Source: Octopus vulgaris
Taxonomy: Eukaryota
Length of the DNA stretch: 64,000 nucleotides
Reading direction: 5' to 3'
Assembly (NCBI GenBank): GCA_951406725.2
Contig: OX597815.1
Span: 91,884,001-91,948,000, forward strand
Shown: in pieces, positions 7,515 through 59,365 of the stretch
Layout of the letters: each line of letters starts with the position of its first letter
Numbering within the stretch: the first letter of the stretch is position 1
Notes under the pieces: model-generated
Databases searched by the model: none
What the model saw: the letters and a program-made list of their open reading frames with translations, nothing else
Told to the model about the DNA's origin: nothing
Made by a program: the position numbers and the translations under genes

Positions 7515-9572
7515 ATTATTATTATTATTATTATTTAAGATGTTGCACAGTATCCAATATCGTAATGTTGATTGAAGATATTGAGTCTACCGGGGTTTTG
7601 TATTGTCTATCAAGCCACAACAAGTACCTCAGACAGACAGTACTTTACACAATATGCATGCTGTTCCAAGTAATGCCAATTTTTGCAATACACCTAGATT
7701 ATAGGGCATTTCTAAAGTTCCCAAATGTTTCTTCAGGTTGGGTGGTATTGAACCCAATGCGCCGTTGACAATCAGGACAACCTTTATATTTGACTATCAT
7801 AGCTGCCACATCTTGGTGATCTCAATTCTCAGGTCTCCATATTTATCAATCTTTTCTCTTTCTTTTATGAAAATATGTTGATCTCCTGGCACTGCCTTGT
7901 CAATTATTGTTTGTTCCTCCTAAAGGTTACTATGTCCAGCCTTTGGTGCTCTAACACCTTGTCTGTTTGGAAGTCAAAGTCCCAGAGGATTTTTGCTTTC
8001 TCCTTTCTGTCCATTACCTCTTCTGGTGTACGTTGGTACCAAGCACCTGTTACCTTGTATCCATACTTCTGGCATAGTAGCCAGTGAAGGTTCTGCACTA
8101 CCTTGTCATGTCTGTGCTTGTACTCTTTCTGCGCACGACTTTCACAAGCACTAACAATGAGAGTAATGCTTTTAACCTTCTTTCCACATATTCTGCAGAG
8201 ATTCGTTGCACTTGTGTGGTATATATCACTTTTCACTGAGTTGATATTCAATGCTTGATCCTGGGCAATGATGATTAAGCTTTCAAGTCTTCTTTTTTAG
8301 GTCACTCTTGCTAACCCACCTCCATGATGCATTCTGATCTTTTAAGTTGTTAATTTCACAGTAAAACTGACCATGTAATTCCATGCAGAGTAGAGTTTCT
8401 TCTCTCTTGTTAGCTATTTGTGATTGGAATGGATTACTGCACTCAAGTTCATTTTTGGTAACTCCTTCTGCATTAGCAGCATTCAGTAGCAGGTCATTTA
8501 CTATTTACCAAATACTCTGCCACGTTTCTTCTTTCACTGTTGATTCCCTCCCATATGCTAATCAGTCCAAATCCACCTTTACACCTCTTCATGTACAGCC
8601 CATGTACATTTACTTTAGAGTGTAGGGTACCATTCAATGTCATTGTCTTTCAGGTTGTGCAAGTCAGTTGGCCAATCTCCATTCGTATCCATTTCAGGAA
8701 GGGTGCACTATATCAGACTACAGCAACAGCCCATATGTTGATGGCAGTCACAAGGTTCCTTGAATTGAGTTTTGATTTCAAGAGAAGTTTGAAGCACTTC
8801 AAAAGTGTAGTGATGGCCTTATCTTTCATTTCTCTGTGCAAGATATTGTCCAGCTCCAAGATCCCAAGGTGCTTGTACACATCATCATCTGGGTCTTTCA
8901 TTCTCTCCATTTGGCAATACTATGTCTTTACAATTTGCTCTTTTCCTCCATTTCAAATTCGAGATACCGAATTCCATCCTTATATCCTTACTGCACATTT
9001 GTACAATCTCAACCAGCCTCTCTATTTCAGGCTCTGTTTTTGCAAACAGTTTTAAATCATCTATGACAAGAAGGTGGTTGAGATGAGGTTCATTCTTTCT
9101 CAACTCATAGGACTACAGAAAGTAGTCCTTTGCGTATGACTACAGAAAGTGGGATCAAGGCTATAACAAATAATAAAGGTGAACAAGAGTATCCCTGGAA
9201 GATACCTCTTTTGATTGTTACCTCGGCTAAGTGCTAGTTGTTACAGAAAAGATGTATTTTTCAACTAGGTATGCTGTTCTTAATCAGTGCACACACATTC
9301 CCAGTTACTCCACACATGCCGAGTGTTTCCAAAATTCACAAATGCGGCAATAGGTCATAAGCCTTTTTAAAGTCTATCCAGGTCATGCACAAGTTTTTTT
9401 GGTACCATTTGCAGTTCTTCATTACAACTTTGTCTATCACAAGGTGGTCCTTGGTGCCCTTGGATCTTTTTGTTCTACTGTAAGTAGATTATTTTTCACA
9501 AGCAACAAATATATTTTCCCTGCAAGGGTGCCTGTTAATACTTTCCATAAAAGGTTAAGACAAGCAATGGGT
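7515..9572 (-). mobile_element. 5'-truncated R4/Dong-clade non-LTR retrotransposon (RT, CCHC finger, restriction-like endonuclease), pseudogenised
   Basis: PIACLNLLWKVLTG (RT start), RGIFQG.S.SPLLF, HLL..DDLKL, CRICGKK...IVSAC...YKHRHDKV and KILWDFDFQTDK...R.DIV. Ends in (TAA)n at ~7515-7535. Confidence 0.85.
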
Positions 9573-10680: not shown

Positions 10681-10682
<2 letters not shown>

Positions 10683-10770
10683 GGCAGCCCCTGGCTCCCC
10701 AAACCCCGGTCGAACCGTCCAACCCGTGCTAGCGTGGAAAACGGACGTTAAACGATGATGATGATGATGA
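10681..10770 (+). mobile_element. RTE-type 3' tail with (GAT)n (second copy at 16700-16790)
   Basis: CCCCGGTCGAACCGTCCAACCCGTGCTAGCGTGGAAAACGGACGTTAAAC(GAT)n matches the end of the RTE at 57300-57400. Confidence 0.75.
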
Positions 10771-10784
10771 TATATATATATATA

Positions 10785-11340
10785 TTCTTGCCTAGGATAT
10801 TGTTTGGAAACCATTCAGCGACATGAAACCAAGAAGAGAATACCCTCCATCAGGCATTTGCAATATTCTGAATGCCTTACTTCCCTGGGCATGGATACGT
10901 TGAAACACCAACATCTGGCAACTGACTTGGCAGACACCCATAAAATTATTAACCATCTTACTAACAATAATTCTGAGCACCTTTTCAAACTCCACCTGTC
11001 TAACACCCGTGGACATGTTTACAAAGTCAGAAGATAGCACAGCTTCCATGACTTTCGGAAACATTTTTTCACGTTAAGATTTGCTGAAGTATGGAATAAA
11101 CTGCCGGCATCAGTTGTTAGTTGTTGGAGCACTGCATCCTTCAAAACTTCCATACTTCTTGAGATTCGCCAACACTACACCTGATTTTCTCCCCTTCATA
11201 CACACGTATGTATGTATCTGACTCTTACACAGTTCACTTTCCAGACATTTGTACATTACTGCATATGCTTTATACACACTTTTGACAAGTTGTAGTGCAT
11301 CTGAGCACTGTATACAATAATTTCATTATTATATTATTAT
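10785..11340 (+). mobile_element. CR1-type LINE 3' fragment (second copy at 16804-17358)
   Basis: KRIPSIRHLQYSECL.SLGMDTL...NTRGHVYKVR is the same family as 52009-52455. TTA-rich tail. Confidence 0.85.
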
Positions 11341-12145
11341 ATAAATATACATATACATATACACACTCATGTATATATAAATATATACGTACATACATAC
11401 ATATACCATGCATGTATGTAGGTATAAATTTTTATGAGAAAATGTCAGGTAAATCTTGTTAGCAATTTAAAATAATACTGTTCTTTTATAGGAAGGTAAA
11501 TATATTTCAGTTCACACTTTTACTCATATTTTGAAATGTTTACTTTTCCATGTTGACATAGATTCGGCTTCTAACAACACTAACGATCTCTCAAATTATA
11601 TCTAAAGATTTTATTTTATTTTTAAACAACCTAAGTAAACTAAATCTTTCTGTATTATAACTTCTATTCCAACCAAATAAAATTAAAATGTGTAACTTGG
11701 GACATAAAAATCATTTAAATTTAATAGCTTATCAGATTTAACAGAAAAACTCCACTACATTCTTCAAAAAAAAAAATCTTTTACCAAGGAATATAAAAGG
11801 AGGAGCAGGATAACGTATATACATATATAAATTGAAAAATTCTTGCTTGTTTCCATTTTTCTTGTCAAACCCATCACCTAGCAAATAATAGCATATTTCT
11901 GAAACTTTCAATGTACATTTTATTCTAAGAATTTTGAATGGATGAATTTGAAGTTAAATTCAAATATTCTTTAAAAATCAAATCATTTTCTTTAAGGTTT
12001 TTTTTTCCTTTCTGAGGTGAGGCATTATTTATATGTCTTGGTATGAGACAAATCTTATAGGATCATCATTCAATATAAACAACTTTTTTCGTTTGTTGCA
12101 AAACACACTCTCTCTTTCTCTCTCTTTATAAATGTATATAAATTG

Positions 12146-12193
<48 letters not shown>

Positions 12194-12264
12194 TCTTTAC
12201 TCTCTTTTACTCTTTTACTTGTCCATTATCCCTTAGATGGTTGCATAACCTCTAACTTATATAT

Positions 12265-12672
12265 AGGCACAGGGATGGCTGTGTGGTAAGTAGCTTGCTC
12301 ACCAACCACATGGTCCTAGATTCAGTCCCACTGCATGGCACCTTGGGCAACTGTGTCTTCTACTATAGCTTCAGGCCAACCAAAACCTTATGAGTGGATT
12401 TGGTAGACAGAAACTGGAAGAAGCCCGTCGTATATGTATATATGTGTATATGTATGTATGTGTTTGTGTGTCTGTTTGTCTCCCCAACATTGCTTGACAA
12501 CCAATGCTGGTGTGTTTACATCCCTGTAACTTAGCAGTTCAACAAAAGAGACTGATAGAATAAGTACTAGGCTTACAAAGAATAAGCTGTGGGGTCAATT
12601 TACTCAACTAAAGGCAGTTCTCCAGCATGGCCACAGTCAAATGACTGAAACAAGTAAAAAGACTAAAAGAGT
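12265..12672 (+). mobile_element. Microsatellite-containing SINE (second copy at ~18284-18686)
   Basis: TGGCTGTGTGG A-box-like and GATTCAGTCCC B-box-like motifs, internal (TA/TG)n, tail GACTGAAACAAGTAAAAAGA. Confidence 0.85.
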
Positions 12673-12691
12673 GTGTGTGTACATATATATA

Positions 12692-12992
12692 TATGGCCCA
12701 GTGATTAGGGCAGCAGACTCGTGGTCGTAGGATCGCGGTTTCGATTCCCAGACCGGGCGTTGTGAGTGTTTATTGAGCAAAAACACCTAAAGCTCCACAA
12801 GGCTCCGGCAGTGGGGTGGCGATCCCTGCTGTAGTCTTTCGCCACAACTTTCTCTCACTCTTTCTTCTGTTGGCCTGCTCACTTAGCCAGCGGGGTGGCG
12901 TCATTTGATGGCTAAAACAATGCGAAGCGCATTGTGACCAGCGATGTGTAGCAACATCTGATAGCCTGGTCGGTCACGGTGATCACAGTGAT
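12692..12992 (+). mobile_element. tRNA-derived SINE, OR-type head (second copy at ~18708-19008)
   Basis: TGGCCCAGTGA...GGTTTCGATTCCC boxes. CpG-rich, so probably young. Flanked by (TA)n. Confidence 0.85.
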
Positions 12993-13258
12993 ATATATAT
13001 GAAACAATATAGACAGATAATGTTTGATGTATCTCAGGCAACATGGTTATGGTATATAGTAAAGAAAGACAACAGAGTAATGCTGTTAGTAGGGGAGGTT
13101 AGGAAGGTAAAGCAGGAGGATGAAATATTGTAACTGAATAAGGGGAAATTAAAAGTAATTAAAAACAAGACAAATGAAGGTGAAAAGATGAAAAAGTGTC
13201 TGTTTCCTTGTCTTCACATTTACCACTCTTTCTCTTCATATACACACATACATATATC

Positions 13259-13405
13259 AGGCGTGACTGTGTGGTAAGAAGCATGCTTCCCAGTTGCATA
13301 GTTCCAGGTTCAGTCCCACTGTACGGCACCTTGGGCATGTGTCTTCTGTTATAGCCTTTAGCTTTGTAAGTGGATTTGGTAGATGGAAATTAAAAGAAGC
13401 CTCTC

Positions 13406-13478
<73 letters not shown>

Positions 13479-13950
13479 ATACAATACACACACACACACA
13501 CACATATATGTATGTATGTATACATTCATGAGTGTGCATTTGTATTTATTCCCCCACCACATATATATATATATATATATATTTTGTGTCTGTGTTTGTT
13601 TTCCCACCGTTGCTTGACAACTGATGCTGGTGGGTCTATATCCCCATAACTTAGCAGTTCAGCAAAAGACACCAACAGAATAAGTACTAGGCTTACAAAG
13701 AATATGTCCTGGGTCAATTTCTTTAACTACAACTCTTTAAGGCATTGCTCCAGCATGGCCACAGTCAGATGACTAAAATAAGTAAAAGAATAAAAGAATG
13801 TATATATATATTCTTTAGTCGAACAAATCGACCCCAAGACTTATTCTTTGTAAACCTAGTACTTATTCTATCAGACTCTTTTGCTGAACTGCTAAGTTAC
13901 GGGTATGTAAACACCCCAACATCAGTTGTCAAGCGGCGGTGGGGTAACAG
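13259..13950 (+). mobile_element. SINE (13259-13800) followed by an inverted partial copy of its 3' half (13812-13950); duplicated at 19274-19970
   Basis: GAATAAGTACTAGGCTTACAAAGAAT at ~13678 recurs as its reverse complement ATTCTTTGTAAACCTAGTACTTATTC at ~13843. Confidence 0.8.
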
Positions 13951-13954
13951 ATAC

Positions 13955-14760
13955 ATATATAAACTGGAGTAAGAACATAAATATGAAACAAGGTGGAAAA
14001 AAGATTACTCAAATACCAGTGGTAGAGTAATATACTTTATTTAAAAGCAGCAGAAATATAACAAAAGCTGTTACTCACTTTCACGTTCCTGTTCGTCGGA
14101 CAGTTTTTTTTTTAACAAAACTTCCACCGAACAGGAACATGAAACTCTGAGTAACAGCTTTTGTTATATTTCTGCAGCTTTTAAATAAAGCATATTATTG
14201 TTGTTATTGCTGGCGATGGTACTGCCATTGGTTCTGTTTGTGTCTCTTCTGCTGCTGCTGTAGTAGCCATTGGGGAAGCTGCTGATGTTGTTGCTGCTGT
14301 TAGGGTCAGCCAGTACCTCAGCTTCATAGATGACTCCTTTGGTTTTGCAGTGGCCTCTCACTGGACATCTGTTGTGGTCCCTGCCTCCGCTTGTGGTTTT
14401 GGGGTGCTAACTAGAATCCTATTAGTATTGGGGGACACAGCTAAAAGAGGTCTTAAGGTTGTGCCTGTTTAAAATACATCTGTACTTATGTGAATGTGTG
14501 AAATGTTTATCTATTAACTTAAGGAATATCCTACCTACAGACGTTTTTATGTTAAGCGAAAAGGTGGAGCAACCCAAATAATATTTCTGCAATGCTTCAT
14601 TCTACGGATATTGGGGCCCAGCATGTAGGAGATGCTGTCCCTAAATCTGCTACCAGCTAGAGCCTCATTACAGTAGGGGTTGCTGCATCAAAAATCTCTT
14701 GGCTGGAGGAAAGGTTCATGATTCTCTTGCTAACATCCTTCACCAGGTTTTTTAACACAA
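13955..14760 (-). mobile_element. Penelope-like element fragment (thumb/linker and GIY-YIG start) with inverted pseudo-LTR; duplicated at ~19973-20780
   Basis: Minus-strand peptides RNIIW...NIKTSVGRIFLKLIDKHF...KYRCILNRHNLK.SFSC and CPVRGHCKTKGVIYEAEV. Inverted repeat 14028-14095 / 14128-14197. Confidence 0.8.
14068..14103 (-). ncRNA. Degenerate minimal type I hammerhead ribozyme (U4C variant)
   Basis: Minus strand: CTGT-CCGACGA-ACAGGAACGT-GAAA-GTGAG-TA-ACAG, with stem I CTGT/ACAG. The opposite arm retains an intact stem III (GAAACTCTGAGTA). Confidence 0.5.
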
Positions 14761-14771
14761 TGGATGAGTGC

Positions 14772-14809
<38 letters not shown>

Positions 14810-14864
14810 TCATCATCATCATCATCATCATATATATATATATATATGCATGTTTGTATGTATA

Positions 14865-15192
14865 TATAAATGTTTTAAATATTATTTTATAGTCAAAAGT
14901 ATGCAAGTTAAAAAGATTTTATACGCAGATCAAGGTCAGTACTGTTGCCTAGTATTTAAGGGTTAAGACCTCTTCCTCAGAAATCTACAGAGAAAAGGTG
15001 TTGATAGCTGCAGTCTCTGCTCTGTAGTATGTGTCACTTATCAACACCTTTTCTCCATAGATTTTTCTGAAGATACAGTTCTAACCTTAAAATATTAAAA
15101 TACCAGGTAATAGTACTAATCATTGACCTGTATTTTTAATTTTTTAACTTGCATTATTTTGACCTTAAAAAATATTCAAAGCATTCATATAA
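14865..15192. repeat. Diverged fold-back inverted repeat (~140-150 bp arms) between (TA)n tracts; duplicated at ~20872-21200
   Basis: AGAAAAGGTGTTGATA / TATCAACACCTTTTCT and ATGCAAGTTAAAAA / TTTTTAACTTGCAT are reverse complements. Confidence 0.75.
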
Positions 15193-15204
15193 TATAATAT
15201 GATA

Positions 15205-15286
<82 letters not shown>

Positions 15287-16139
15287 GACAATGCTTTATG
15301 AAAACTATACTATTTTAATATTCTACTCTAATATATGTACACTCTCACACACACACACAAACACACACGCACGCACAGATATTTGTCCAATGTACTCAAC
15401 ATCTTACCAATTGAGAAAATAAATTGCTGTACCATCGCATAATTCTATAAACTATATTAAAACCATATTATACCCCAACCCTCAAGTACCAATAAATAAC
15501 ATAGAATTCTTAAGAAGTGATTTAATGAGTCTTCCTCCTCCAGCCTGCCATCTTTCAGAAAAAAGAATTATTTTTTCATAAGCGCTTTCTTTCAAAAGTC
15601 TTCGTCTTATAATTAATTCATATTTAATTCCCCCCTTTCATGTTTGTTTGTTTCTTTATTTGTAGTTTTTGTTTTATTTTAATTTTGTTACATTTTCAAT
15701 TTAATTGTGTTTTGTGTTATTTTTGCGGGGGGGGGGGTATTTTTTTCTTTCTTTCTAATTTCTTAATGATTAACTATTTCATTTTCTAGTTGCAGCTTTA
15801 ATTCAAATTTCAATCTATCAGCACTTACCAATTTGGCTAATAGTTTGTTCTAATCAGGAATTTTAATAGCACTTGACTTTCAATTATTTTTGACCGGAAT
15901 TTTGCTGGAAATTTGAAAGAAGAGCAAAGGTTAAAATTCTTCAAGACTCTTTCAATTAGAGAACAAAACAATTCATTTGAGTGTGCCATTGAAAGTAATA
16001 TGTTTTCTGTGTCAATTTTACATTTGCTTTTCAACCATGTTTCTGTAACTAAATATATTGACCAGGTGTGATCAACATTAATATACTTTGTCATGAATTG
16101 GTAAAAGTGGTGTTAAAATAACATTGCATGAAATAATAG

Positions 16140-16365
16140 TCATGGCCAATGCCAGTGTCATGTAAACGGCACCCATGCCAGTGGCACATAAAATGCACCC
16201 ATTACACTCTTAGATTGGTTGACATTAGGAAGAGCATCCAGTGATAGAAGCCATGCCAAATCAGACTGGTACTTGGAGCAGCTCTCTGGCTTACCAGTTT
16301 CAGTCAAACCATCTAACTCATGCTAGCAAGGAAAGCAGATGCTAAATGATGATGATGATGATGAC
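16140..16365 (+). mobile_element. RTE-type 3' UTR fragment with (GAT)n tail (second copy at ~22150-22375)
   Basis: GTGGCACATAAAATGCACCCATTACACTC...CATGCTAGCAAGGAAAGCAGATGCTAAAT(GAT)n is the same family as 57100-57400. Confidence 0.7.
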
Positions 16366-16599
16366 AACGATGACAATAATGATAACAATGATGATGAGAG
16401 CAATAAGTAGCAAGAATAACAAGCCCCTACACAGTCCCTCAACCAGCTAGAAATAACATCCAAATCTTTTCCAAACCATACCCTCCTGTCTACAAAAACA
16501 AAAAAATTAGATAATGTATCCTTAGACATATGTCTGAAGAACAAAAAGCAGGAAGAGTGTTCATGAGAGAAGTTCCTTTGGTCATAGGTTTGCTTGATC

Positions 16600-16699
16600 N
16601 NNNNNNNNNNNNNNNNNNNNNNNNNNNNNNNNNNNNNNNNNNNNNNNNNNNNNNNNNNNNNNNNNNNNNNNNNNNNNNNNNNNNNNNNNNNNNNNNNNN
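16600..16699. other. Assembly gap (100 N)
   Basis: Run of exactly 100 N. Confidence 1.
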
Positions 16700-18164
16700 G
16701 GGGCAGCCCCTGGCTCCCCAAACCCCGGTCGAACCGTCCAACCCGTGCTAGCGTGGAAAACGGACGTTAAACGATGATGATGATGATGATATATATATAT
16801 ATATTCTTGCCTAGGATATTGTTTGGAAACCATTCAGCGACATGAAACCAAGAAGAGAATACCCTCCATCAGGCATTTGCAATATTCTGAATGCCTTACT
16901 TCCCTGGGCATGGATACGTTGAAACACCAACATCTGGCAACTGACTTGGCAGACACCCATAAAATTATTAACCATCTTACTAACAATAATTCTGAGCACC
17001 TTTTCAAACTCCACCTGTCTAACACCCGTGGACATGTTTACAAAGTCAGAAGATAGCACAGCTTCCATGACTTTCGGAAACATTTTTTCACGTTAAGATT
17101 TGCTGAAGTATGGAATAAACTGCCGGCATCAGTTGTTAGTTGTTGGAGCACTGCATCCTTCAAAACTTCCATACTTCCTGAGATTCGCCAACACTACACC
17201 TGATTTTCTCCCCTTCATACACACGTATGTATGTATCTGACTCTTACACAGTTCACTTTCCAGACATTTGTACATTACTGCATATGCTTTATACACACTT
17301 TTGACAAGTTGTAGTGCATCTGAGCACTGTATACAATAATTTCATTATTATATTATTATATAAATATACATATACATATACACACTCATGTATATATAAA
17401 TATATACGTACATACATACATATACCATGCATGTATGTAGGTATAAATTTTTATGAGAAAATGTCAGGTAAATCTTGTTAGCAATTTAAAATAATACTGT
17501 TCTTTTATAGGAAGGTAAATATATTTCAGTTCACACTTTTACTCATATTTTGAAATGTTTACTTTTCCATGTTGACATAGATTCGGCTTCTAACAACACT
17601 AACGATCTCTCAAATTATATCTAAAGATTTTATTTTATTTTTAAACAACCTAAGTAAACTAAATCTTTCTGTATTATAACTTCTATTCCAACCAAATAAA
17701 ATTAAAATGTGTAACTTGGGACATAAAAATCATTTAAATTTAATAGCTTATCAGATTTAACAGAAAAACTCCACTACATTCTTCCAAAAAAAAAATCTTT
17801 TACCAAGGAATATAAAAGGAGGAGCAGGATAACGTATATACATATATAAATTGAAAAATTCTTGCTTGTTTCCATTTTTCTTGTCAAACCCATCACCTAG
17901 CAAATAATAGCATATTTCTGAAACTTTCAATGTACATTTTATTCTAAGAATTTTGAATGGATGAATTTGAAGTTAAATTCAAATATTCTTTAAAAATCAA
18001 ATCATTTTCTTTAAGGTTTTTTTTTCCTTTCTGAGGTGAGGCATTATTTATATGTCTTGGTATGAGACAAATCTTATAGGATCATCATTCAATATAAACA
18101 ACTTTTTTCGTTTGTTGCAAAACACACTCTCTCTTTCTCTCTCTTTATAAATGTATATAAATTG

Positions 18165-18212
<48 letters not shown>

Positions 18213-19420
18213 TCTTTACTCTCTTTTACTCTTTTACTTGTCCATTATCCCTTAGATGGTTGCATAACCTCTAACTTATATATAGGCACAGGGATGGCTG
18301 TGTGGTAAGTAGCTTGCTCACCAACCACATGGTCCTAGATTCAGTCCCACTGCATGGCACCTTGGGCAACTGTGTCTTCTACTATAGCTTCAGGCCAACC
18401 AAAACCTTATGAGTGGATTTGGTAGACAGAAACTGGAAGAAGCCCGTCGTATATGTATATATATGTATATGTATGTATGTGTTTGTGTGTCTGTTTGTCT
18501 CCCCAACATTGACAACCAATGCTGGTGTGTTTACATCCCTGTAACTTAGCAGTTCAACAAAAGAGACTGATAGAATAAGTACTAGGCTTACAAAGAATAA
18601 GCTGTGGGGTCAATTTACTCAACTAAAGGCAGTTCTCCAGCATGGCCACAGTCAAATGACTGAAACAAGTAAAAAGACTAAAAGAGTGTGTGTGTACATA
18701 TATATATATGGCCCAGTGATTAGGGCAGCAGACTCGTGGTCGTAGGATCGCGGTTTCGATTCCCAGACCGGGCGTTGTGAGTGTTTATTGAGCAAAAACA
18801 CCTAAAGCTCCACAAGGCTCCGGCAGTGGGGTGGCGATCCCTGCTGTAGTCTTTCGCCACAACTTTCTCTCACTCTTTCTTCTGTTGGCCTGCTCACTTA
18901 GCCAGCGGGGTGGCGTCATTTGATGGCTAAAACAATGCGAAGCGCATTGTGACCAGCGATGTGTAGCAACATCTGATAGCCTGGTCGGTCACGGTGATCA
19001 CAGTGATATATATATGAAACAATATAGACAGATAATGTTTGATGTATCTCAGGCAACATGGTTATGGTATATAGTAAAGAAAGACAACAGAGTAATGCTG
19101 TTAGTAGGGGAGGTTAGGAAGGTAAAGCAGGAGGATGAAATATTGTAACTGAATAAGGGGAAATTAAAAGTAATTAAAAACAAGACAAATGAAGGTGAAA
19201 AGATGAAAAAGTGTCTGTTTCCTTGTCTTCACATTTACCACTCTTTCTCTTCATATACACACATACATATATCAGGCGTGACTGTGTGGTAAGAAGCATG
19301 CTTCCCAGTTGCATAGTTCCAGGTTCAGTCCCACTGTACGGCACCTTGGGCATGTGTCTTCTGTTATAGCCTTTAGCTTTGTAAGTGGATTTGGTAGATG
19401 GAAATTAAAAGAAGCCTCTC

Positions 19421-19495
<75 letters not shown>

Positions 19496-21212
19496 ATACA
19501 ATACACACACACACACACACATATATGTATGTATGTATACATTCATGAGTGTGCATTTGTATTTATTCCCCCACCACATATATATATATATATATATATA
19601 TTTGTGTCTGTGTTTGTTTTCCCACCGTTGCTTGACAACTGATGCTGGTGGGTCTATATCCCCATAACTTAGCAGTTCAGCAAAAGACACCAACAGAATA
19701 AGTACTAGGCTTACAAAGAATATGTCCTGGGTCAATTTCTTTAACTACAACTCTTTAAGGCATTGCTCCAGCATGGCCACAGTCAGATGACTAAAATAAG
19801 TAAAAGAATAAAAGAATGTATATATATATTCTTTAGTCGAACAAATCGACCCCAAGACTTATTCTTTGTAAACCTAGTACTTATTCTATCAGACTCTTTT
19901 GCTGAACTGCTAAGTTACGGGTATGTAAACACCCCAACATCAGTTGTCAAGCGGCGGTGGGGTAACAGATACATATATAAACTGGAGTAAGAACATAAAT
20001 ATGAAACAAGGTGGAAAAAAGATTACTCAAATACCAGTGGTAGAGTAATATACTTTATTTAAAAGCAGCAGAAATATAACAAAAGCTGTTACTCACTTTC
20101 ACGTTCCTGTTCGTCGGACAGTTTTTTTTTTAACAAAACTTCCACCGAACAGGAACATGAAACTCTGAGTAACAGCTTTTGTTATATTTCTGCAGCTTTT
20201 AAATAAAGCATATTATTGTTGTTATTGCTGGCGATGGTACTGCCATTGGTTCTGTTTGTGTCTCTTCTGCTGCTGCTGTAGTAGCCATTGGGGAAGCTGC
20301 TGATGTTGTTGCTGCTGTTAGGGTCAGCCAGTACCTCAGCTTCATAGATGACTCCTTTGGTTTTGCAGTGGCCTCTCACTGGACATCTGTTGTGGTCCCT
20401 GCCTCCGCTTGTGGTTTTGGGGTGCTAACTAGAATCCTATTAGTATTGGGGGGCACAGCTAAAAGAGGTCTTAAGGTTGTGCCTGTTTAAAATACATCTG
20501 TACTTATGTGAATGTGTGAAATGTTTATCTATTAACTTAAGGAATATCCTACCTACAGACGTTTTTTATGTTAAGAGAAAAGGTGGAGCAACCCAAATAA
20601 TATTTCTGCAATGCTTCATTCTACGGATATTGGGGCCCAGCATGTAGGAGATGCTGTCCCTAAATCTGCTACCAGCTAGAGCCTCATTACAGTAGGGGTT
20701 GCTGCATCAAAAATCTCTTGGCTGGAGGAAAGGTTCATGATTCTCTTGCTAACATCCTTCACCAGGTTTTTTAACACAATGGATGAGTGCGTATATATAT
20801 ATATATATATATATCATCATCATCATCATCATCATCATATATATATATATATATGCATGTTTGTATGTATATATAAATGTTTTAAATATTATTTTATAGT
20901 CAAAAGTATGCAAGTTAAAAAGATTTTATACGCAGATCAAGGTCAGTACTGCTGCCTAGTATTTAAGGGTTAAGACCTCTTCCTCAGGAAATCTACAGAG
21001 AAAAGGTGTTGATAGCTGCAGTCTCTGCTCTGTAGTATGTGTCACTTATCAACACCTTTTCTCCATAGATTTTTCTGAAGATACAGTTCTAACCTTAAAA
21101 TATTAAAATACCAGGTAATAGTACTAATCATTGACCTGTATTTTTAATTTTTTAACTTGCATTATTTTGACCTTAAAAAATATTCAAAGCATTCATATAA
21201 TATAATATGATA

Positions 21213-21296
<84 letters not shown>

Positions 21297-22610
21297 GACA
21301 ATGCTTTATGAAAACTATACTATTTTAATATTCTACTCTAATATATGTACACTCTCACACACACACACAAACACACACGCACGCACAGATATTTGTCCAA
21401 TGTACTCAACATCTTACCAATTGAGAAAATAAATTGCTGTACCATCGCATAATTCTATAAACTATATTAAAACCATATTATACCCCAACCCTCAAGTACC
21501 AATAAATAACATAGAATTCTTAAGAAGTGATTTAATGAGTCTTCCTCCTCCAGCCTGCCATCTTTCAGAAAAAAGAATTATTTTTTCATAAGCGCTTTCT
21601 TTCAAAAGTCTTCGTCTTATAATTAATTCATATTTAATTCCCCCTTTCATGTTTGTTTGTTTCTTTATTTGTAGTTTTTGTTTTATTTTAATTTTGTTAC
21701 ATTTTCAATTTAATTGTGTTTTGTGTTATTTTTGCGGGGGGGGGGGGTATTTTTTTCTTTCTTTCTAATTTCTTAATGATTAACTATTTCATTTTCTAGT
21801 TGCAGCTTTAATTCAAATTTCAATCTATCAGCACTTACCAATTTGGCTAATAGTTTGTTCTAATCAGGAATTTTAATAGCACTTGACTTTCAATTATTTT
21901 TGACCGGAATTTTGCTGGAAATTTGAAAGAAGAGCAAAGGTTAAAATTCTTCAAGACTCTTTCAATTAGAGAACAAAACAATTCATTTGAGTGTGCCATT
22001 GAAAGTAATATGTTTTCTGTGTCAATTTTACATTTGCTTTTCAACCATGTTTCTGTAACTAAATATATTGACCAGGTGTGATCAACATTAATATACTTTG
22101 TCATGAATTGGTAAAAGTGGTGTTAAAATAACATTGCATGAAATAATAGTCATGGCCAATGCCAGTGTCATGTAAACGGCACCCATGCCAGTGGCACATA
22201 AAATGCACCCATTACACTCTTAGATTGGTTGACATTAGGAAGAGCATCCAGTGATAGAAGCCATGCCAAATCAGACTGGTACTTGGAGCAGCTCTCTGGC
22301 TTACCAGTTTCAGTCAAACCATCTAACTCATGCTAGCAAGGAAAGCAGATGCTAAATGATGATGATGATGATGACAACGATGACAATAATGATAACAATG
22401 ATGATGAGAGCAATAAGTAGCAAGAATAACAAGCCCCTACACAGTCCCTCAACCAGCTAGAAATAACATCCAAATCTTTTCCAAACCATACCCTCCTGTC
22501 TACAAAAACAAAAAAAAATAGATAATGTATCCTTAGACATATGTCTGAAGAACAAAAAGCAGGAAGAGTGTTCATGAGAGAAGTTCCTTTGGTCATAGGT
22601 TTGCTTGATC
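16700..22610. repeat. Copy 2 of the 5.9-kb tandem duplication
   Basis: Begins at the first base after the gap with GGGGCAGCCCC (= 10681) and ends with TTGCTTGATC (= 16599). Confidence 0.95.
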
Positions 22611-26487: not shown

Positions 26488-26555
<68 letters not shown>

Positions 26556-26691
26556 ACCTTATTTCAGTTTCCATCTATCAAATCCACTCACAAGGCTTTG
26601 GTCGCCCCGAGGCTATAGTAGGAGACACTTGGCCAAAGTTCCACACAGTGGGACTGAACCCAGAACCATGTGGTTGGGAAGCAAGCTTCTT
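26262..26691 (-). mobile_element. SINE body, interrupted near its 5' end by an L1/Tx1-type insertion (head resumes at 28730-28762)
   Basis: The SINE sequence runs to GGTTGGGAAGCAAGCTTCTT and resumes as GAAGCAAGCTTCTTAACACACAGCCATGCCTG at 28730. Confidence 0.9.
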
Positions 26692-26984
26692 TATTTCATT
26701 AAATTTGCCACAAGGGCAGCACACAGAGAGAAGCTTGGGGGCTAGACAGAGATATTAATGGGATGAATGATGATGATATATGGATGATAAGAATGGAAGA
26801 ACACGAAAAGCGCCCGCCGACTTTCGCTTCTCTAAAACATTGTTCTTTTTTTTTCTTTTTTTTTTTTAAAACAATGAGGCAATAAACCTCTTACACAGTT
26901 CAAAATTAAAAATAAAACACAAACACGAGGCAATAATCCTCTCACTTTTTACATTTTTAGTCTCTTTTGAGGTAATACACCTCT

Positions 26985-27455
26985 TCAATGTTTCCGCCCG
27001 GCCAGGCTCCTCGCTACATCGAAGCACCTGGTCCGTTCCGAACTTAAAGGTTTCAACATAAATCTGAAGGAATCCTTCGGGAAGGAGTTCATTATCTTCC
27101 GTAGATCGTTCTCCCATATGATCTCCACAGCCACCTGCGAAGGCCACTCAGGGTCCTCCGTGTAGGACAGAAGCTCCTCCCACCGGCACTTCCTTTCAAT
27201 TTTTTTAATTTCATTTTGCAAGGTTCCTCCCTTGTGGAAGAGAACCAAAAATTCCTCCTCCAGCAGCACACCCGCCAAAGGAGAATCGGGACACGCCGGC
27301 AGCGTGTCACAACCCGCCGGCAATGTCCCGTTTTTCTTTTTTCTTTTCTTTTTCCCTTGGGCTGCGGGAGGGTGGTGTTCCCTTGTTGTGTCCAGCAGGT
27401 CCTCCTTTTCTCCTGCAGCTCTCGGGTTCTTCAGTGGGCAACCATTGTTGCCCAC
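26985..27455 (-). pseudogene. Probable frameshifted C-terminal continuation of ORF1
   Basis: Begins 10 nt after the ORF1 stop, which lies in an A-run. Has a basic KKKRKKK segment and a globular-looking tail, with no endonuclease or RT motif. Confidence 0.45.
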
Positions 27456-27464
27456 CTTTCGCTT

Positions 27465-28181
27465 TCATTTTTTCGAGGAGGTGGAAACCTCCTTGACATC
27501 CTCCTCCTTCTCTCCCTCCATTGAGGGAGCAGGGAGTGGTTCCTCTGTTAACTGCTCCAGGATCCTATTTTGGTCCTTGGGGCAGTTTTTCTTGATGTGG
27601 CCGGTCTCCAGGCACAGGTGACACTTGGGGGGGGGGCGTCCCTCGAGCATCACCGGATACCTAGACCCAGCCATCCTCAAAAAATCTGGGAAAACCAGAC
27701 TTTCGGCTGATTGTTTCCATAGGGTCAACACAGCTTTTGACCCCTCCCAATCAGCCGCAGGCAAAATTTTTACTTTGAGCAGCTTGGTACTGCTACCACC
27801 CAGACCCCGGCGGATAGAGTCCTCTATCCACTCGGGCTCAATTCCGTGTGGCAAGCCGCAAACCCAAGCCCTCGTTAACTTCTTTCCACAATAACTGGGA
27901 AGAAACATTATTTCCTCCCCTTCGAGGGGCCGGCTTGCAAAATTGCAAGCTTCTTTGGGGGAGTCAAATAGCAACCAGACCATTGCAAATTTGACTCCCA
28001 GTGAAATAAATTTAATAGCTGGCATGTATTCTACCAGCTCTTTCAAAATTGTGGCTTTCGGGAAGACGGTTATGGTATCAAGCGACTTTAAATAAGTCCT
28101 CAACACCACCGTCTTCCTTTCGAGCTCTTTTAGCCATGATTTGAGAGGTGTTAATTCCCATACTAATATTTCCTTTGTCAT
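27465..28181 (-). CDS. L1/Tx1-type ORF1 protein (RRM-like region plus CCHC zinc knuckle), 238 aa
   Basis: TRAWVCGLPHGIEPEWI (RRM-like) and V.LEGRPPPKCHLCLETGHIKKNCP (CX2CX4HX4C). Non-repetitive, ATG-initiated ORF. Confidence 0.8.
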   Translation of the reverse strand: MTKEILVWELTPLKSWLKELERKTVVLRTYLKSLDTITVFPKATILKELVEYMPAIKFISLGVKFAMVWLLFDSPKEACNFASRPLEGEEIMFLPSYCGKKLTRAWVCGLPHGIEPEWIEDSIRRGLGGSSTKLLKVKILPAADWEGSKAVLTLWKQSAESLVFPDFLRMAGSRYPVMLEGRPPPKCHLCLETGHIKKNCPKDQNRILEQLTEEPLPAPSMEGEKEEDVKEVSTSSKK

Positions 28182-30173
28182 TTTTTTTTTTAAATAAAAA
28201 GTTCAAATACAGTTCGTCAATACGTTTTCAAATAAAGAAAGATACACAAAAAAAGAAAGAAGACACAACAGAAGGGAAGAAAAAAGAAAAATAACAGTTC
28301 AAATAAAGTTCTTTTTTTTTTAAATAAATGATAGCTGTGAAAAGAGAGTTCAAATCCAGGCAAAGAAATAAATTTTTGGCCAAAAGGTACGCCTGGCCAA
28401 TCCTTTTAATCCACATGGGCACAAAAATTTTCAAATACAACTTCTCACAATTATGTGAGACAACACACACGTCTCCACAGCAAGGCAGACAAAAAGCCCT
28501 GAATCCAGTAAGGACTCCTTGTCTGTTCAAAAAATAAAACCAACAGGCAACAAATCCTACTGGACTCAAAAAGCAAAAAGTCTTACCTTACAGTAGAGCG
28601 TCTTTCAGTTCAACTTTCGCCAGCTGCATACCAGCGTGACGACTTCAACAGGTGCGTGAAGAACACTGTTTTTGTTCTTTTTTCTTTTTAGGACGGAGCT
28701 CAAGCTACAATGTCCTCTCTGTTCAACCAGAAGCAAGCTTCTTAACACACAGCCATGCCTGTCCAAAGAACTGTTAGTGAGTGTATATGTATGTGCCAGA
28801 CTATGGTAATCTGGTATTATTAATGTTTTGCAGCTGGGTAGTTGTAATGCTACCAGCGGTCATAGAACAGAAATAAAAATACATGTAGCAAGGGGCAAAA
28901 GTATTTACAGCTAAAAAATGTAAATAAACACAAGTTTACTTTATACTTATATACATGCATGTGTGTGTGTGCGTGTGCATGTGTGTTTTAGGCCTGTGTG
29001 TTTTAAATGCATAGTTATTGTCAAGAAGAGCATCAAGACCTAAAATACAGCTCAAGTAAGTATCCGGTAAGTATCTGGTCAACCTAGTCAATCTAGTCAA
29101 AAGGTATGTGAACATTGAAAAATGACAGAATGGAAGAAGGGAGAGGGGATTATAAAAAGGATATAAAAAACGGAATGTAAAGAATGCTATAAAGCAAAAA
29201 AATTTATAACCACAAAACAGGTACAAGTCCAGTCAAGAGACTATAAAGGCAAGGAAATGTAATAAGATTGCATTGAAAATAGAGAGGTTTGGAAGAGAAG
29301 GCTTAAGAAATATTTATATATACAGTACATGGAAAAAAAGAGAATTGATTGTAAAAAGGGCATGAAAAAGGAATGCTATATAAGTTAATTTACACAGGTT
29401 AAAAGAAAGTTTTAATGAAATCTAGTAGACAGCAAAGTTTCCAGAAAGTCAACGTAATCTAATGTTGCAAAGAATTCGAGAATGGTTTAAAAATTGGTTT
29501 GAGAGCAGATGTTACATGATGGACATTCGGTCTGTGAAGAAAGAAAAATGATGGCAAAAGGAGATTGTGACAGAGTAGGAGAGGTGATAATAGATGGGGG
29601 TGATAATAGTGTGTGCATGTGCTTGCATGCTAGTGCATGTAAATGTCAGTGTGCATATGAACAGTCAAAGTTAAAGTACACAGTACTTCAGGAAATAGTG
29701 GCATATACTTTTTATTGAGTTTTACACAGTTGGGTGTAAAAAAGAGTGTAAAAAAAAGGAATGCTACACCAATAAATAAATACATAAATATTTACATATA
29801 TTCATACATACATGCATACATATCTATCTATCTATATATATATATATATATCAAATAGTAATTTCAGTCTTCATATCCATCACTTCTGTAATGAAATGTT
29901 TACATCTATGACAATATCAGTTAAAATTTGATTTTTTCCATTTACATACACAAACGCACACATACATGTACATGCATACATAAAGAAATATATATGATAG
30001 AAATATAATAGTAATTTCAAAGTTCATACCTACCATCTCCATATCAAAATATTTATATCCATGACAATACCACTAATAATGCTGTCTTACTTCCATACGC
30101 ATACATGTATATATACATGCATGCATTCATACATACTAATGTGTGTATGTGTATTATATATGTGTGTATATAA

Positions 30174-36039: not shown

Positions 36040-36823
36040 ATAAAGTAAATATTTAGTCCTGCATGAATCTGACAACACCAACATCCAGAAGGAGCTACAA
36101 GATATGCTCAACTAATAGAAGTTACATTTTTTCCCCTCATCACTGAATCAGAATTCAACAACAACAGAAGAAATATCCCACATCATTTCAAATAACTAAA
36201 GATGAATGTACCACCATCACATCAAGACTTTGAAAACATCATGAATTGTGTGAAACTGAATATCCCCACATGCAAACATCCCTCTTGAATTATTGAAACA
36301 ATGGAGACTGCTTTTCCAAACTAGGCTTTTCACTCTTATTCTGTAAACATGGGAAGCCCACCAAATCCTCTTTCTAATCATACACACCACTTCTCCACAC
36401 ATCTAACCACAAATACTACCAATACATTTTCATTCACACCACAAAACCCTTTTGAATGAGCAACACAGATTCCATGGCTCCATACTTTGAAATGACTAAA
36501 CATGAACTGCTATTGGAACTTACATGCCATGTACAAGAAACTTTTTTACCAATTCTATACACCATTTTCCTCGAATAATGGAACTACAACTACAATATCT
36601 TTATATATCTTATTTCTACTTTCATTCTCTTATTGCCCTCTATATTTCCTATCTCCTCCTTTTCCATAATAATTTGAACTCAAATATTTCCTCTATTTAA
36701 CCTTCTCACACCATCTCTGATGAAGGGATATCCATAATATCCCAGAAACAGCTGTAAGACTATTTCCTTATAAATGTCCTGAAAACTCTTTACAGCCTTG
36801 GTTTTGTTATCTCATTCTGTCTA
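36040..36823 (+). mobile_element. Penelope-like element 3' end and pseudo-LTR
   Basis: A WEAHQILFL-type C-terminal remnant, then a T/C-rich UTR ending in a hammerhead motif and (TA)n. Confidence 0.5.
36714..36759 (+). ncRNA. Minimal type I hammerhead ribozyme with palindromic stem III
   Basis: TCT-CTGATGA-A-GGGATAT(CCATA)ATATCCC-A-GAAA-CAGCTG-TA-AGA. Predicted cleavage after A36756 (GUA). Confidence 0.75.
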
Positions 36824-36859
<36 letters not shown>

Positions 36860-36963
36860 ATACATATATATATATATATATGCATGCTAACACAAGACCC
36901 ACATTAGACCCCTCACTTATATCATTATCGAACCAAAAGTTTGGGTCTTCTAGATACCAATAC

Positions 36964-37026
<63 letters not shown>

Positions 37027-37128
37027 GTATTGGTATCTAGAAGACCCAAACTTTTGGTTCGATAATGATATAAGTGAGGGGTCTAATGTGGGTCTTGTGT
37101 TAGCATGCATATATATATATATATGTAT

Positions 37129-37168
<40 letters not shown>

Positions 37169-37275
37169 TAGACAGAATGAGATAACAAAACCAAGGCTGT
37201 AAAGAGTTTTCAGGACATTTATAAGGAAATAGTCTTACAGCTGTTTCTGGGATATTATGGATATCCCTTCCTCAG

Positions 37276-37276
<1 letters not shown>
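36716..37276. repeat. ~560-bp near-perfect palindrome centred on (TA)n
   Basis: Arms 36716-36967 and 37023-37276 are reverse complements, including their internal microsatellites. Confidence 0.95.
37233..37276 (-). ncRNA. Inverted copy of the hammerhead motif (CUGAGGA core)
   Basis: Minus strand: T-CTGAGGA-AGGGATATCCATAATATCCCA-GAAA-CAGCTG-TA-AGA. The 5' strand of stem I is partly replaced by (TA)n. Confidence 0.55.
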
Positions 37277-37307
<31 letters not shown>

Positions 37308-37319
37308 TAATCACTACAC

Positions 37320-38420
37320 CCCTTACTTCAATAACCATTTTTTAGACAGTGAAAAAACAGGCACCACCACTTACACAGACCCATAAAAAGAAAACTAAAA
37401 TAACAAACCTCTCTAATAAAAAACCCTTACACCAACCCAAATTAGCATCCTAGCCAGAGGCTTGAAATTCACACCCACCCCAAGAACACAACTCCCCGGA
37501 GATCAAGGATGACATTTCAGAATTTTGCAGAAAACTTCGTCTAACAGAAGCTTTTATAGACCTCAACAATGAGGATGATTCAATTGTTAAAAATAAAAGT
37601 AACTACCTACCATCCAAAGGAAGAAATAAAGCACTGGATGATTTTTGCAACCACAGCCAGAGTCTCCCTTTTACCCCATACAAAACCAAGGTTAAGTCCA
37701 ACTTTAATAGTAATGAATGGAAAAACCTACAAGACCTACAACAGGACAAGTGCCTTACTGTTAAAGAAGCCAACAAAGGTAGTACTGTGGTCCTTATGGA
37801 TACAGATTTTTACAAATACTTTCATTATTTAATGACAACTCTTTCTATGAAATAATCACTAACTATAAACAACAAAAAACACTCAAAAACCTCACCACTC
37901 TCATACAACATGGTCAAAAGCTCACAGAAAAAGAAAAGGATTACATCACCAACTTCAAATGCAAGCCCAACCTCTTCTATGGCCTCCCTAAAGTCCATAA
38001 AACAAGTCCATCACCAAAGACTGCAAACTCTCCTTTGACATCCACATCAACATTAAGACACCGGAGGACCTAAAACTAAGGCCGATCATAGCTGGCACCT
38101 CCTGTGAAACACACCGCTTGAGCAATTTCCTGGACATCCTTTTGAAACCTTTCCTCAGTCACATCAAAAGTTTCATTAGAGACGATCTTGACATGCTCAA
38201 GCACCTCACGAAAACAACCAACGAGGAGGCATTCTTTGTTTCCTTTGATGTTATCAACCACTATACCAACATCCCACATGAATATAGTATTGAGGCAATT
38301 GATTTCTGGCTGGAGAAACATCCAGAAGCATTTCCTAACCACATTAACAAGACCATCATTACAGAATCACTCAAGTTCATTCTGACAAACAATTACTTCC
38401 TCTTCGAAAACACACACTAG
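37320..38420 (+). pseudogene. Penelope-like element reverse transcriptase, N-terminal half
   Basis: ILARGLKFTPTP, FCRKLRL, FYGLPKVHK, LRPIIAG, LSNFLDILLKPF and FVSFDVINHYTNIPH...ILTNNYFLFEN. Frameshifted and truncated before the DD motif. Confidence 0.9.
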
Positions 38421-50253: not shown

Positions 50254-50569
50254 TTATATGTATGTATGTATATTTGTGCACATACATATACACGTGCCCC
50301 CTTATTTAAATTCTTACAAGTGGTATTCTAGTTTGGTGCATGAAATAAATGAAATAAATGGGGCATGTTATGCATATGTGTATGAATATGTGTGTCAGTG
50401 TATGCGTTTATCTGCACATGTGTTTATTTGTGTGAGCATGCAAATATGTGAGAGATAGACAATTTGCATTTATATAAGCTAATACCAATCAATATCTTCA
50501 TTATACATTGAGTGTGATCATCATCAGAATTTTATGACCGTTCTTCCATGCTAGTAAGCAAATATATAT

Positions 50570-55065: not shown

Positions 55066-55104
55066 TGTATGTATAAGCTAGGAGACAGGTTTATTTAGCC
55101 AGAG

Positions 55105-58966: not shown

Positions 58967-59365
58967 CTAGCAGTATCACCCGGCGTTGCTCGGGTTTGTA
59001 AGGGAAATAACTATAAAGCATTTTTAGAGAGTTATAGCCAAAAAATAGCATAAAATGCATTAAAAATGGAAAAAAAATTATAGTAAATTTTTTTAAATCG
59101 TTGACTCATCGTAGACATTTTTAGAGAGTTACTTCCCTTATATAATAGCAAAAAAATGCATTAAAATGGAAAAAATCATGGTAAATTATTTTTAAAATCG
59201 TAGACTCATTGTAGACGCGCGCTAATACCCAGAAGGGCTCGATATGAATCACGACTATAAGATACCCGGTTTTGGTTACACTGCACCGCAAAATGTGGGA
59301 GTAGTTAGGAATCTAAATCGAAGGGGACAGACACTCACACAACTACAGTTTTATATATATATAGA
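58967..59365 (-). mobile_element. Second non-autonomous Helitron of the same family
   Basis: Same TC start, CCCGAGCAACGCCGGG hairpin and CTAG end. Confidence 0.8.

Follow-up and report, generated by a model that had tools for sequence, protein, structure and literature searches.

Non-autonomous LINEs that retain ORF1 are known from three clades, Jockey, L1 and CR1, in insects and mammals (available part of PMC5786205). The combination of RRM and CCHC motifs defines a Type I ORF1 (excerpt of PMC4120745), and ORF1s of this make-up have been found in Tx1-type elements (PMC5203782). For O. vulgaris, the available part of PMC13282606 gives 80 annotated L1-Tx1 families and 13 recently active ones, the latter with a mean of 5.4 kb per insertion (Table 1). 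We found no description of an ORF1-only LINE in cephalopods in the literature searched. Here we analysed a window of 64,000 nucleotides of O. vulgaris DNA (contig OX597815.1), in which a sequence-only reading had proposed a retrotransposing ORF1-only family. A TPRT-type insertion, an ORF1 without ORF2, an octopod host and a multicopy state all stood up to analysis; what did not was activity of this copy, which looks dead. We conclude that the locus probably holds a decayed member of a multicopy octopod family of ORF1-only non-autonomous LINEs, mobilised by a full-length L1/Tx1-type LINE.

The element lies between two copies of a target-site duplication (TSD), inside a host repeat:

26678..26691, no strand: TSD at the element's 3′ end, identical 14-mer
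28730..28743, no strand: TSD at the element's 5′ end, identical 14-mer
26692..28729, minus strand: element body, 2038 bp, multicopy over its whole length (from TSD bounds and depth)
26541..26691, plus strand: host SINE-like repeat, left part, its start probably further upstream
28744..28762, plus strand: host SINE-like repeat, right remnant past the insertion

The perfect 14-bp TSD claimed around 2038 bp was recovered exactly, at 26678-26691 and 28730-28743, and neither copy can be extended on either side. Any repeated 14-mer occurred in only 2/300 shuffles of the 2.3-kb region, and the TSD is more than chance. Taking the insert and one TSD copy out in silico made the SINE-like repeat whole again; this restored joint is spanned by 10 of 13 non-self BLASTN matches in the window, representing 8 independent loci because two pairs of them lie in a duplicated segment. 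The features of a TPRT insertion, namely a TSD, a defined 3′ end and an empty site, are thus all present.

The SINE-like repeat that the element interrupts is abundant, and the point of entry is a TTCTT/AA site. The nick consensus of L1-type endonucleases is TTTT/AA, and the nick geometry here fits such an enzyme. An RRM/CCHC ORF1, a T-rich nick site and a TSD within 10-20 bp are features of the L1/Tx1 clade found at this locus, and they are not exclusive to it. The SINE copy that was hit reads TTCTT|AA, with AA at that place in 0/9 of the other printed window copies. SINE-specific targeting of insertions was considered and is unsupported.

The remaining features describe a long 5′ UTR and an interrupted reading frame:

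28182..28729, minus strand: 5′ UTR, 548 nt, covered in 4/4 runs
27468..28181, minus strand: ORF1, first 238 codons (P0001)
27891..28145, minus strand: first RRM-type fold, residues about 13-97 (predicted structure)
27633..27890, minus strand: second RRM-type fold, residues about 98-183, the most conserved part, 85% to P0004
27582..27623, minus strand: single CX2CX4HX4C zinc knuckle, residues 187-200 (zf-CCHC E 0.0025, below the curated cut-off)
27465..27467, minus strand: in-frame premature TGA, where P0004 is open
26988..27464, minus strand: in-frame ORF1 continuation, 159 codons (P0002), a low-complexity linker and then an uncharacterised C-terminal region
26987-26985, minus strand: stop of the ORF1 continuation

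The lengths first estimated as ~550 nt, 238 aa and ~290 nt for 5′ UTR, ORF and 3′ UTR were measured as 548 nt, 238 aa (28181-27468, minus) and 293 nt. The CX2CX4HX4C motif was found at residues 187-200, and what had been described as an RRM-like motif became, in the predicted structure, two tandem RRM-type folds. The model had pLDDT mostly 76-97 over residues 11-210, its top Foldseek matches were tandem-RRM proteins (E about 1e-5), and the first RRM-type fold resembled the nucleolin RRM (best Z 9.0, rmsd 2.1, 75 aligned). As modelled, ORF1 is a Type I protein with a predicted RRM-RRM fold and one CCHC knuckle. The proposed "probable frameshifted" C-terminal extension had to be corrected, as its 159 codons lie in the same frame right behind one TGA, and O. 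sinensis P0004 is open there. The full ORF1 thus spans about 398 codons interrupted by a premature stop, which makes the 238-aa ORF a truncated form. Homology to P0004 extends to residue 280. For the C-terminal 95-111 residues, all Atlas leads scored under 0.9 and the structure model of this region was of low confidence (pLDDT 39.8). A profile built from four distant ORF1 C-termini failed to recognise the region, with 111/500 shuffles as good; P0006 alone came nearest (5/500 shuffles as good).

Behind the ORF1 stop lies a 3′ UTR with a repeated motif:

26692..26984, minus strand: 3′ UTR of 293 nt that contains an A-rich tract
26969..26983, minus strand: GAGG-N7-CCTC hairpin-type motif, repeat 1, directly behind the ORF1 stop
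26927..26941, minus strand: the same motif, repeat 2
26876..26890, minus strand: the same motif, repeat 3

The 3′ UTR ends in AATAAA, which overlaps the TSD, and this copy has no poly(A) tail. The hairpin-type motif has 3 matches in 64 kb against 0.19 expected and was reached in 0/100 shuffles, figures that are optimistic because the motif was picked after being seen. Its triplication from the ORF1 stop through the proximal 3′ UTR suggests, at the level of sequence, one evolved UTR. Single hairpins gave z scores of -1.2 to -2.4, and the whole 3′ UTR folded no better than shuffles (z 0.47). Rfam returned 12 matches, 0 of them at the gathering score. An exact scan of metagenome contigs for the motif yielded at least 119 loci, with 0/119 element-like by BLASTN or TBLASTN.

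The absence of any APE or RT trace was confirmed: read through stops, 6/6 frames gave no Pfam RT or APE match (E≤0.1), and 2/2 RT ORFs of the same window, used as positive controls, matched RVT_1. ORF1 had no Transposase_22 match, and wherever the junction is placed, neither side of it showed an ORF2 remnant. Searches for longer proteins fusing ORF1 to ORF2 returned nothing at 418-2000 aa or 1135-3240 aa, which is weak evidence. Neither relatives nor an autonomous partner turned up among metagenome and viral contigs, where a partner would not be expected, and the window contains no second copy of the element by BLASTN of the element or TBLASTN of the homolog set. The remaining matches in the window were two short low-complexity ones and the non-ORF1 part of the chimeric model P0026. 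The recently active L1-Tx1 families of O. vulgaris are possible donors.

To survey abundance, we summed contig depth in four runs, each under a different organism label, over 25 interior bins across the element, with 26838-26929 masked. All 25 bins were covered in 4/4 runs; the shallowest reached 15-23x the median depth of each run's eight listed pieces and the ORF1 core about 800-1800x, a weak measure that gives no copy number. X3 record 17 carries 434 letters of unlike flank beside the same 3′ end, which marks another insertion site and argues against one fixed site. X2 record 9 is ambiguous, running 13 letters into the TSD and ending there at 87% overall likeness. Where the SINE copy that was hit has AA at the nick, the loose-end consensus started with AC in 4/4 runs among the rows listed, which are SINE-dominated. 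Together, deep coverage in four runs and a second flank at the same 3′ end indicate a retrotransposed multicopy family.

In the strongest alternative, an ordinary two-ORF L1/Tx1-type LINE would have left a single internally deleted copy here; ORF2 would have been lost by a template jump during the insertion or by later deletion, possibly between the hairpin repeats, and the 2-kb form would never have amplified. Full-length L1-Tx1 families are active in octopus (available part of PMC13282606), and other internal deletions are known in the family, with a joint at 27458-27607 in 4/4 runs and one at 27720-27854 in 2/4. An X4 joint at 27217-28183 sits in A/T runs and is a probable misalignment. No contig among those listed bridges ORF1 to the 3′ tail, and in every one of the four runs the junction-region bin, which holds the proximal 3′ UTR, has the lowest depth of the 25; against this, the A-rich bin where ORF1 starts is only 2-3x deeper. 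X4 record 25 crosses the ORF1 stop and reaches 6 nt past it, under the 31-letter rule. Depth 21 nt beyond the ORF1 stop was 60-84% of that in the last ORF1 codons, and coverage on both sides of the junction is expected for a single deleted copy too. A 3′ depth excess, as a 5-6 kb full LINE with the usual 5′ truncation would give, was absent, a weak indication that subfamily divergence in the tail could mask: the ratio of tail bin to ORF1 core was 0.60-0.74 in 4/4 runs, and that of 5′ UTR to the C-terminal half of ORF1 was 0.55-0.84. The repeated motif, moreover, begins at the ORF1 stop and continues through the UTR, and with no ORF2 remnant at either side the deletion would need to be near-exact. 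We regard a one-off deletion as unlikely.

The homologs bear on a second alternative, in which the locus is the processed pseudogene of a host gene encoding a zinc knuckle and two RNA-binding domains, either ZCCHC3-like or a domesticated ORF1. The closest homolog, O. sinensis P0004, is annotated as a gene (LOC115225585, three protein accessions), and the Atlas cluster at rank 6 (score 0.91) contains the ZCCHC3 RBD1/RBD2 families. Yet the O. sinensis protein is itself decayed, ending at 281 aa with the first knuckle cysteine lost, and along the whole element, UTRs as well, depth exceeds that of single pieces by factors from the tens to more than a thousand. A phmmer search of 1.84 billion proteins gave 28 matches, one close and the others mostly 23-32% identical, with no single conserved parent gene among them; of the 21 looked up, all 13 with a species name were Octopus or Argonauta. 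To judge by these sequences, the pattern is one of many TE lineages and not of a conserved single gene. A pseudogene is accordingly very unlikely. Several ORF1 relatives of 23-30% identity sit on recurring 1.2-1.9 kb contigs.

Identity to P0004, a second subfamily, peaks in RRM2 (72/85) and is lowest in the linker (40/75), a domain-graded pattern that suggests purifying selection in the source lineages. Among the listed coding differences, 19/23 were non-synonymous and 4 synonymous, so the copy is likely dead; a neutral share of 0.30 synonymous was not rejected (p 0.14). A domesticated gene at the locus was ruled out by the premature stop and this neutral-like 19:4 ratio. The 14-bp TSD, T-rich nick site and AATAAA end are a better match to L1/Tx1 than to non-L1 clades. 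That the element derives from, or was mobilised by, a non-L1 Type I clade (I, Jockey, R1, L2 or CR1 group) is hardly credible: Type I ORF1s also occur there and an element without RT has no assignable clade, but those ORF1s mostly have three knuckles, against one here (available part of PMC4120745, including Table 1).

For the preferred ORF1-only family, a source copy would be transcribed from its own 5′ UTR, in whose 548 nt an internal promoter would sit, and the RRM-RRM-CCHC ORF1p would coat its own RNA in cis. The partner's ORF2p would nick the plus strand at 5′-TTCTT/AA-3′ and prime cDNA on the A-rich RNA end; under the TPRT model, the T-rich end of the TSD at 26678..26691 is predicted to prime reverse transcription, and a second nick 14 nt away would create the TSD. 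Speculatively, the hairpin-type motif that recurs three times after the ORF1 stop might serve as a cis signal through which protein is loaded. After insertion this copy, which is probably inactive, would have mutated neutrally and lost its ORF.

If true, a half-LINE with a Type I ORF1 in octopods would mean that the ORF1-only strategy is found again in a further LINE group and a further phylum. The element would also offer a natural test of what makes a parasite retain ORF1 when SINEs do without it, the two options being a cis need of long Pol II transcripts for ORF1p and partner recruitment. RT-based TE classifiers miss ORF1-only elements, so in octopus their ORF1s are annotated as "uncharacterized" or "CCHC-type" genes, and several homologs here appear mis-annotated in this way. 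More tentatively, and in our view somewhat improbably, octopods may hold a large, long-lived radiation of ORF1-only Tx1-type half-LINEs, with hundreds to about a thousand copies of ORF1 in each genome, several subfamilies with selected ORF1, a triple hairpin capturing the partner's ORF2p, and many 23-30% identical relatives as further independent lineages mis-annotated as genes. Such a radiation would bring the LINE groups with the HAL1/HeT-A strategy to four and be its first case in Lophotrochozoa.

Among known systems, HAL1 is likewise ORF1 only, TSD-bounded and dependent on ORF2p in trans, with source lineages that keep ORF1 coding (available parts of PMC5753468 and PMC3627910). HAL1 derives from mammalian L1 with a Type II ORF1 (coiled coil, RRM, CTD; Transposase_22), whereas the octopus element is of Type I (RRM-RRM-CCHC), comes from a mollusc and, in this copy, lacks a poly(A) tail; having no Transposase_22 match, it falls outside HAL1 in the strict sense of a mammalian-type L1 with Type II ORF1. 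HeT-A inserts at telomeres in arrays and has a very long 3′ UTR, in contrast to the dispersed 2-kb insertion with TSD and single knuckle described here. HeT-A (Drosophila, Jockey) is similarly an ORF1-present non-autonomous LINE (excerpt of PMC5786205), and Jockey-lineage ORF1s are Type I with RRM and CCHC (excerpt of PMC4120745). Ag-Sponge (Anopheles, CR1) is an ORF1-present bipartite LINE that arose by internal deletion (available parts of PMC5786205 and PMC3414825); it is CR1-derived, whereas here nothing points toward CR1, and both target site and TSD look L1-like. Autonomous Octopus L1-Tx1 LINEs share the host group and a consistent ORF1 architecture and insertion signature, but recently active ones average 5.4 kb against 2.0 kb without ORF2 here, a comparison made by description. 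Vertebrate ZCCHC3 is alike at the level of features, with two RNA-binding domains and a knuckle, but neither the query nor 22/22 homologs matched the ZCCHC3 RBD Pfam families, and the octopus sequence occurs as a dispersed repeat and not as a single-copy gene. Overall, with a LINE ORF1p (one stop in this copy), no ORF2 and 293 nt after the ORF1 stop, the octopus element is probably a further case of the known HAL1/HeT-A/Ag-Sponge kind, and its mechanism is not new.

The element, an ORF1-encoding insertion of 2038 bp on the minus strand (26692-28729), is flanked by identical copies of the 14-mer GAAGCAAGCTTCTT at 26678-26691 and 28730-28743, so the perfect target-site duplication (TSD) described by the sequence-only reading stands. 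Removal of the insert and one TSD copy restored a SINE-like repeat (labelled so by abundance and length alone), and 10 of the 13 non-self BLASTN matches in the window, at 8 independent loci, spanned the restored joint. Thousands of contigs from all four public sequencing runs aligned diverged from the reference sequence at 26691, continuing there as the SINE itself does, and of 300 shuffled versions of the region just 2 contained a repeated 14-mer of any kind. Together, these data show that the element is a real, single insertion. Its parts agree closely with the ~550-nt 5′ UTR, 238-aa ORF and ~290-nt 3′ UTR first read from it:

Upstream of ATG at 28181, minus strand: 5′ UTR, 548 nt
ATG 28181 to TGA 27467-27465, minus strand: first open part of ORF1, 238 codons
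TGA 27467-27465 to TGA 26987-26985, minus strand: ORF1 continuation in the same frame, 159 codons
Behind TGA 26987-26985, minus strand: 3′ UTR, 293 nt

The C-terminal extension had been thought frameshifted; it instead follows an in-frame TGA (27467-27465), at which the closest homolog, P0004 of Octopus sinensis (67% identity over 275 residues), has no stop.

An AlphaFold2 model of the ORF1 protein, built on 22 homologs, was confident across residues about 11-210, and Foldseek ranked proteins with tandem RRMs highest (E about 1e-5), among them NONO/SFPQ, hnRNP A1 and Sxl. VIA-align placed RRM-type domains at residues 13-97 and 97-183 (best Z 9.0, rmsd 2.1, 75 residues); Z values were middling, yet the top rows were nearly all RRM-type. 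The RRM-like and CX2CX4HX4C motifs seen earlier thus correspond to two RRM-type domains of predicted fold and a single knuckle C-terminal to them, whereas the C-terminal 110 residues are uncharacterised. Reverse transcriptase (RT) or endonuclease gave no match at E<=0.1 in six frames of the element read through stops, while the same search did detect two RT fragments at other window positions, in agreement with the reported lack of any trace of APE or RT. These controls are frameshifted LINE fragments with RVT_1 matches at 50538-52455 and 55077-56143, which we take to be CR1-like and RTE-like from their motifs; further ORF fragments at 38001-38420 and 7904-8296 presumably resemble, by motifs only, Penelope-type RT and a LINE C-terminal region.

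The window also holds two 5.9-kb segments (10681-16599 and 16700-22610), 99.4% identical and head to tail around a 100-N gap (16600-16699), probably an assembly overlap artefact and possibly a recent tandem duplication. The 567 bp at 36713-37279 form a near-perfect palindrome that matches its reverse complement at 97% identity. Just ahead of a GC-rich 22-bp satellite (59447-62481) lie a tandem duplication of 317 bp (95%) and a tandem pair of 100 bp (58283-58918 and 59019-59216). The about 116 copies of the satellite are followed, from a switch at 62008, by about 21 inverted ones, giving long spurious ORFs.

Searching 1.84 billion proteins with phmmer returned 28 matches to ORF1; among the 21 looked up, 13 carried species names, all Octopus sinensis, O. 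vulgaris, O. bimaculoides or Argonauta hians. Judged by these sequences, the host is probably an octopod, and the group comprises many divergent lineages in octopods. The O. sinensis gene model P0026 resembles the ORF1 start at residues 89-134 (54%), matches window 8373-8495 at residues 11-51 and otherwise carries an integrase domain; by this composition it is chimeric, and it probably represents remnants of nested TEs that were taken for a gene in annotation. Logan contigs of distant ORF1 relatives recur at set lengths (P0005 cluster 1849-1930 bp, P0029 cluster 1884 bp, P0012 cluster 1209-1230 bp, P0007 1703 bp, P0022 1764 bp). These have no space for ORF2 and may be more ORF1-only units or simply contigs cut at repeats.

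Of 40 differences listed (131 more lay outside the list), we used 35, excluding five thinly supported 5′-tip rows. ORF1 held 23, and their split into 19 non-synonymous and 4 synonymous was compatible with a neutral synonymous share of 0.30 (p 0.14); part of them may be species or subfamily differences. This pattern and the early stop codon make it likely that the copy is dead. Identity between subfamilies was graded (RRM2 72/85, knuckle 16/20, RRM1 59/97, linker 40/75), as expected if selection acted on ORF1 in source elements. In P0004 the first cysteine of the knuckle is missing and the protein ends at 281 aa; this O. sinensis gene model therefore looks like a further decayed copy and not like a parental gene.

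Part of the stretch was present in 20 of 24 public runs listed, under four organism labels. As at most 0.44 of sampled words were found, none seems to contain this exact copy. When contigs of four runs, one per label, were aligned to the element at 85% likeness, all 25 bins wholly within it were covered in every run. In a rough unit of our own, the median of eight pieces listed per run, depth across the four runs was 15-23 in the lowest bin, 23-204 in the 5′ UTR, up to 835-1775 in the ORF1 core and 512-1242 in the tail bin; summed depth is no copy number, and these values show a repeat of substantial abundance, nothing more. One contig (X3 record 17) joins the element's 3′ end (26688-26837) to 434 letters of unlike flank, which on this evidence marks a second insertion site. 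Joints at 27458-27607 (four of four runs) and 27720-27854 (two of four) come from other family copies with internal ORF1 deletions of 148 and 133 bp.

The proposal of a retrotransposing ORF1-only family thus held as to multiple copies and a second site, and the ORF2-less form is rather probably the family's own. A LINE of 5-6 kb whose copies are truncated at the 5′ end in the usual way is expected to give a 3′ depth excess. Here, tail depth was 0.60-0.74 times ORF1-core depth in each of the four runs, and depth 21 nt behind the ORF1 stop was 60-84% of that at the last codons. The missing excess is an indirect sign of an ORF2-less family form, although an excess at the tail could be masked by divergence among subfamilies. 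GAGG-N7-CCTC, a motif selected after inspection of the sequence, is present in three copies, spread from the stop codon across the proximal UTR, with none in the rest of the 64 kb (0.19 expected), a pattern that looks like one evolved UTR; yet these repeats could themselves have promoted a one-off deletion of ORF2. Such a deletion also accords with the contigs listed, none of which spans ORF1 to tail (X4 record 25, from another run, passes the ORF1 stop by 6 nt only), and with a proximal-UTR bin that is the shallowest of the element. The contig comparison is further limited by the masking of 26838-26929 in the alignment and by a loose-end listing dominated by SINE rows. However, no ORF2 remnant lay beside any possible junction, and we consider a one-off deletion the less likely reading.

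The empty-site plus strand reads TTCTT|AA, and the L1 endonuclease consensus is TTTT/AA, to which this putative nick site is close. The element's A-rich 3′ end meets the nick exactly, with AATAAA overlapping the TSD. AA at the nick is found in this SINE copy and in 0 of 9 other window copies printed, the run consensus being AC; a private variant thus probably created the site, which fits a general preference of L1 type better than targeting of the SINE. In the mechanism we propose, a transcript made from the 5′ UTR would be bound in cis by its own ORF1p, with the GAGG-N7-CCTC hairpins, speculatively, as loading signal; a partner's ORF2p would then be captured for target-primed reverse transcription. 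The autonomous partner was not found.

Internally deleted non-autonomous LINEs have been split into ORF1-absent and ORF1-present kinds (Kojima 2018, PMC5786205), the latter exemplified there by HeT-A (Jockey), HAL1 (L1) and Ag-Sponge (CR1). Ag-Sponge is described as arising by internal deletion (PMC3414825), and HAL1, with ORF1p as sole product, as having several origins in mammals (PMC5753468) and a long intact ORF1 in guinea pig (PMC3627910, citing Bao and Jurka 2010). Type I ORF1 is outlined as RRM then CCHC (PMC4120745), and RRM/CCHC combinations are noted from non-mammalian L1/Tx1 elements (PMC5203782). In the openly accessible literature searched, we found no ORF1-only LINE from a cephalopod. 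A 2026 O. vulgaris repeat annotation gives 80 L1-Tx1 families (PMC13282606), its main text containing neither 'non-autonomous' nor 'ORF'; the family may be catalogued in its consensus library, Repbase or Dfam. The element likely belongs to L1/Tx1 and would work in the same way as HAL1, HeT-A and Ag-Sponge, but as its ORF1 is Type I it is not HAL1 in the strict sense. Overall, this real, well-formed insertion is most likely a new member of the already known ORF1-present non-autonomous kind, found here in a host phylum new for it and probably also in a new LINE group.
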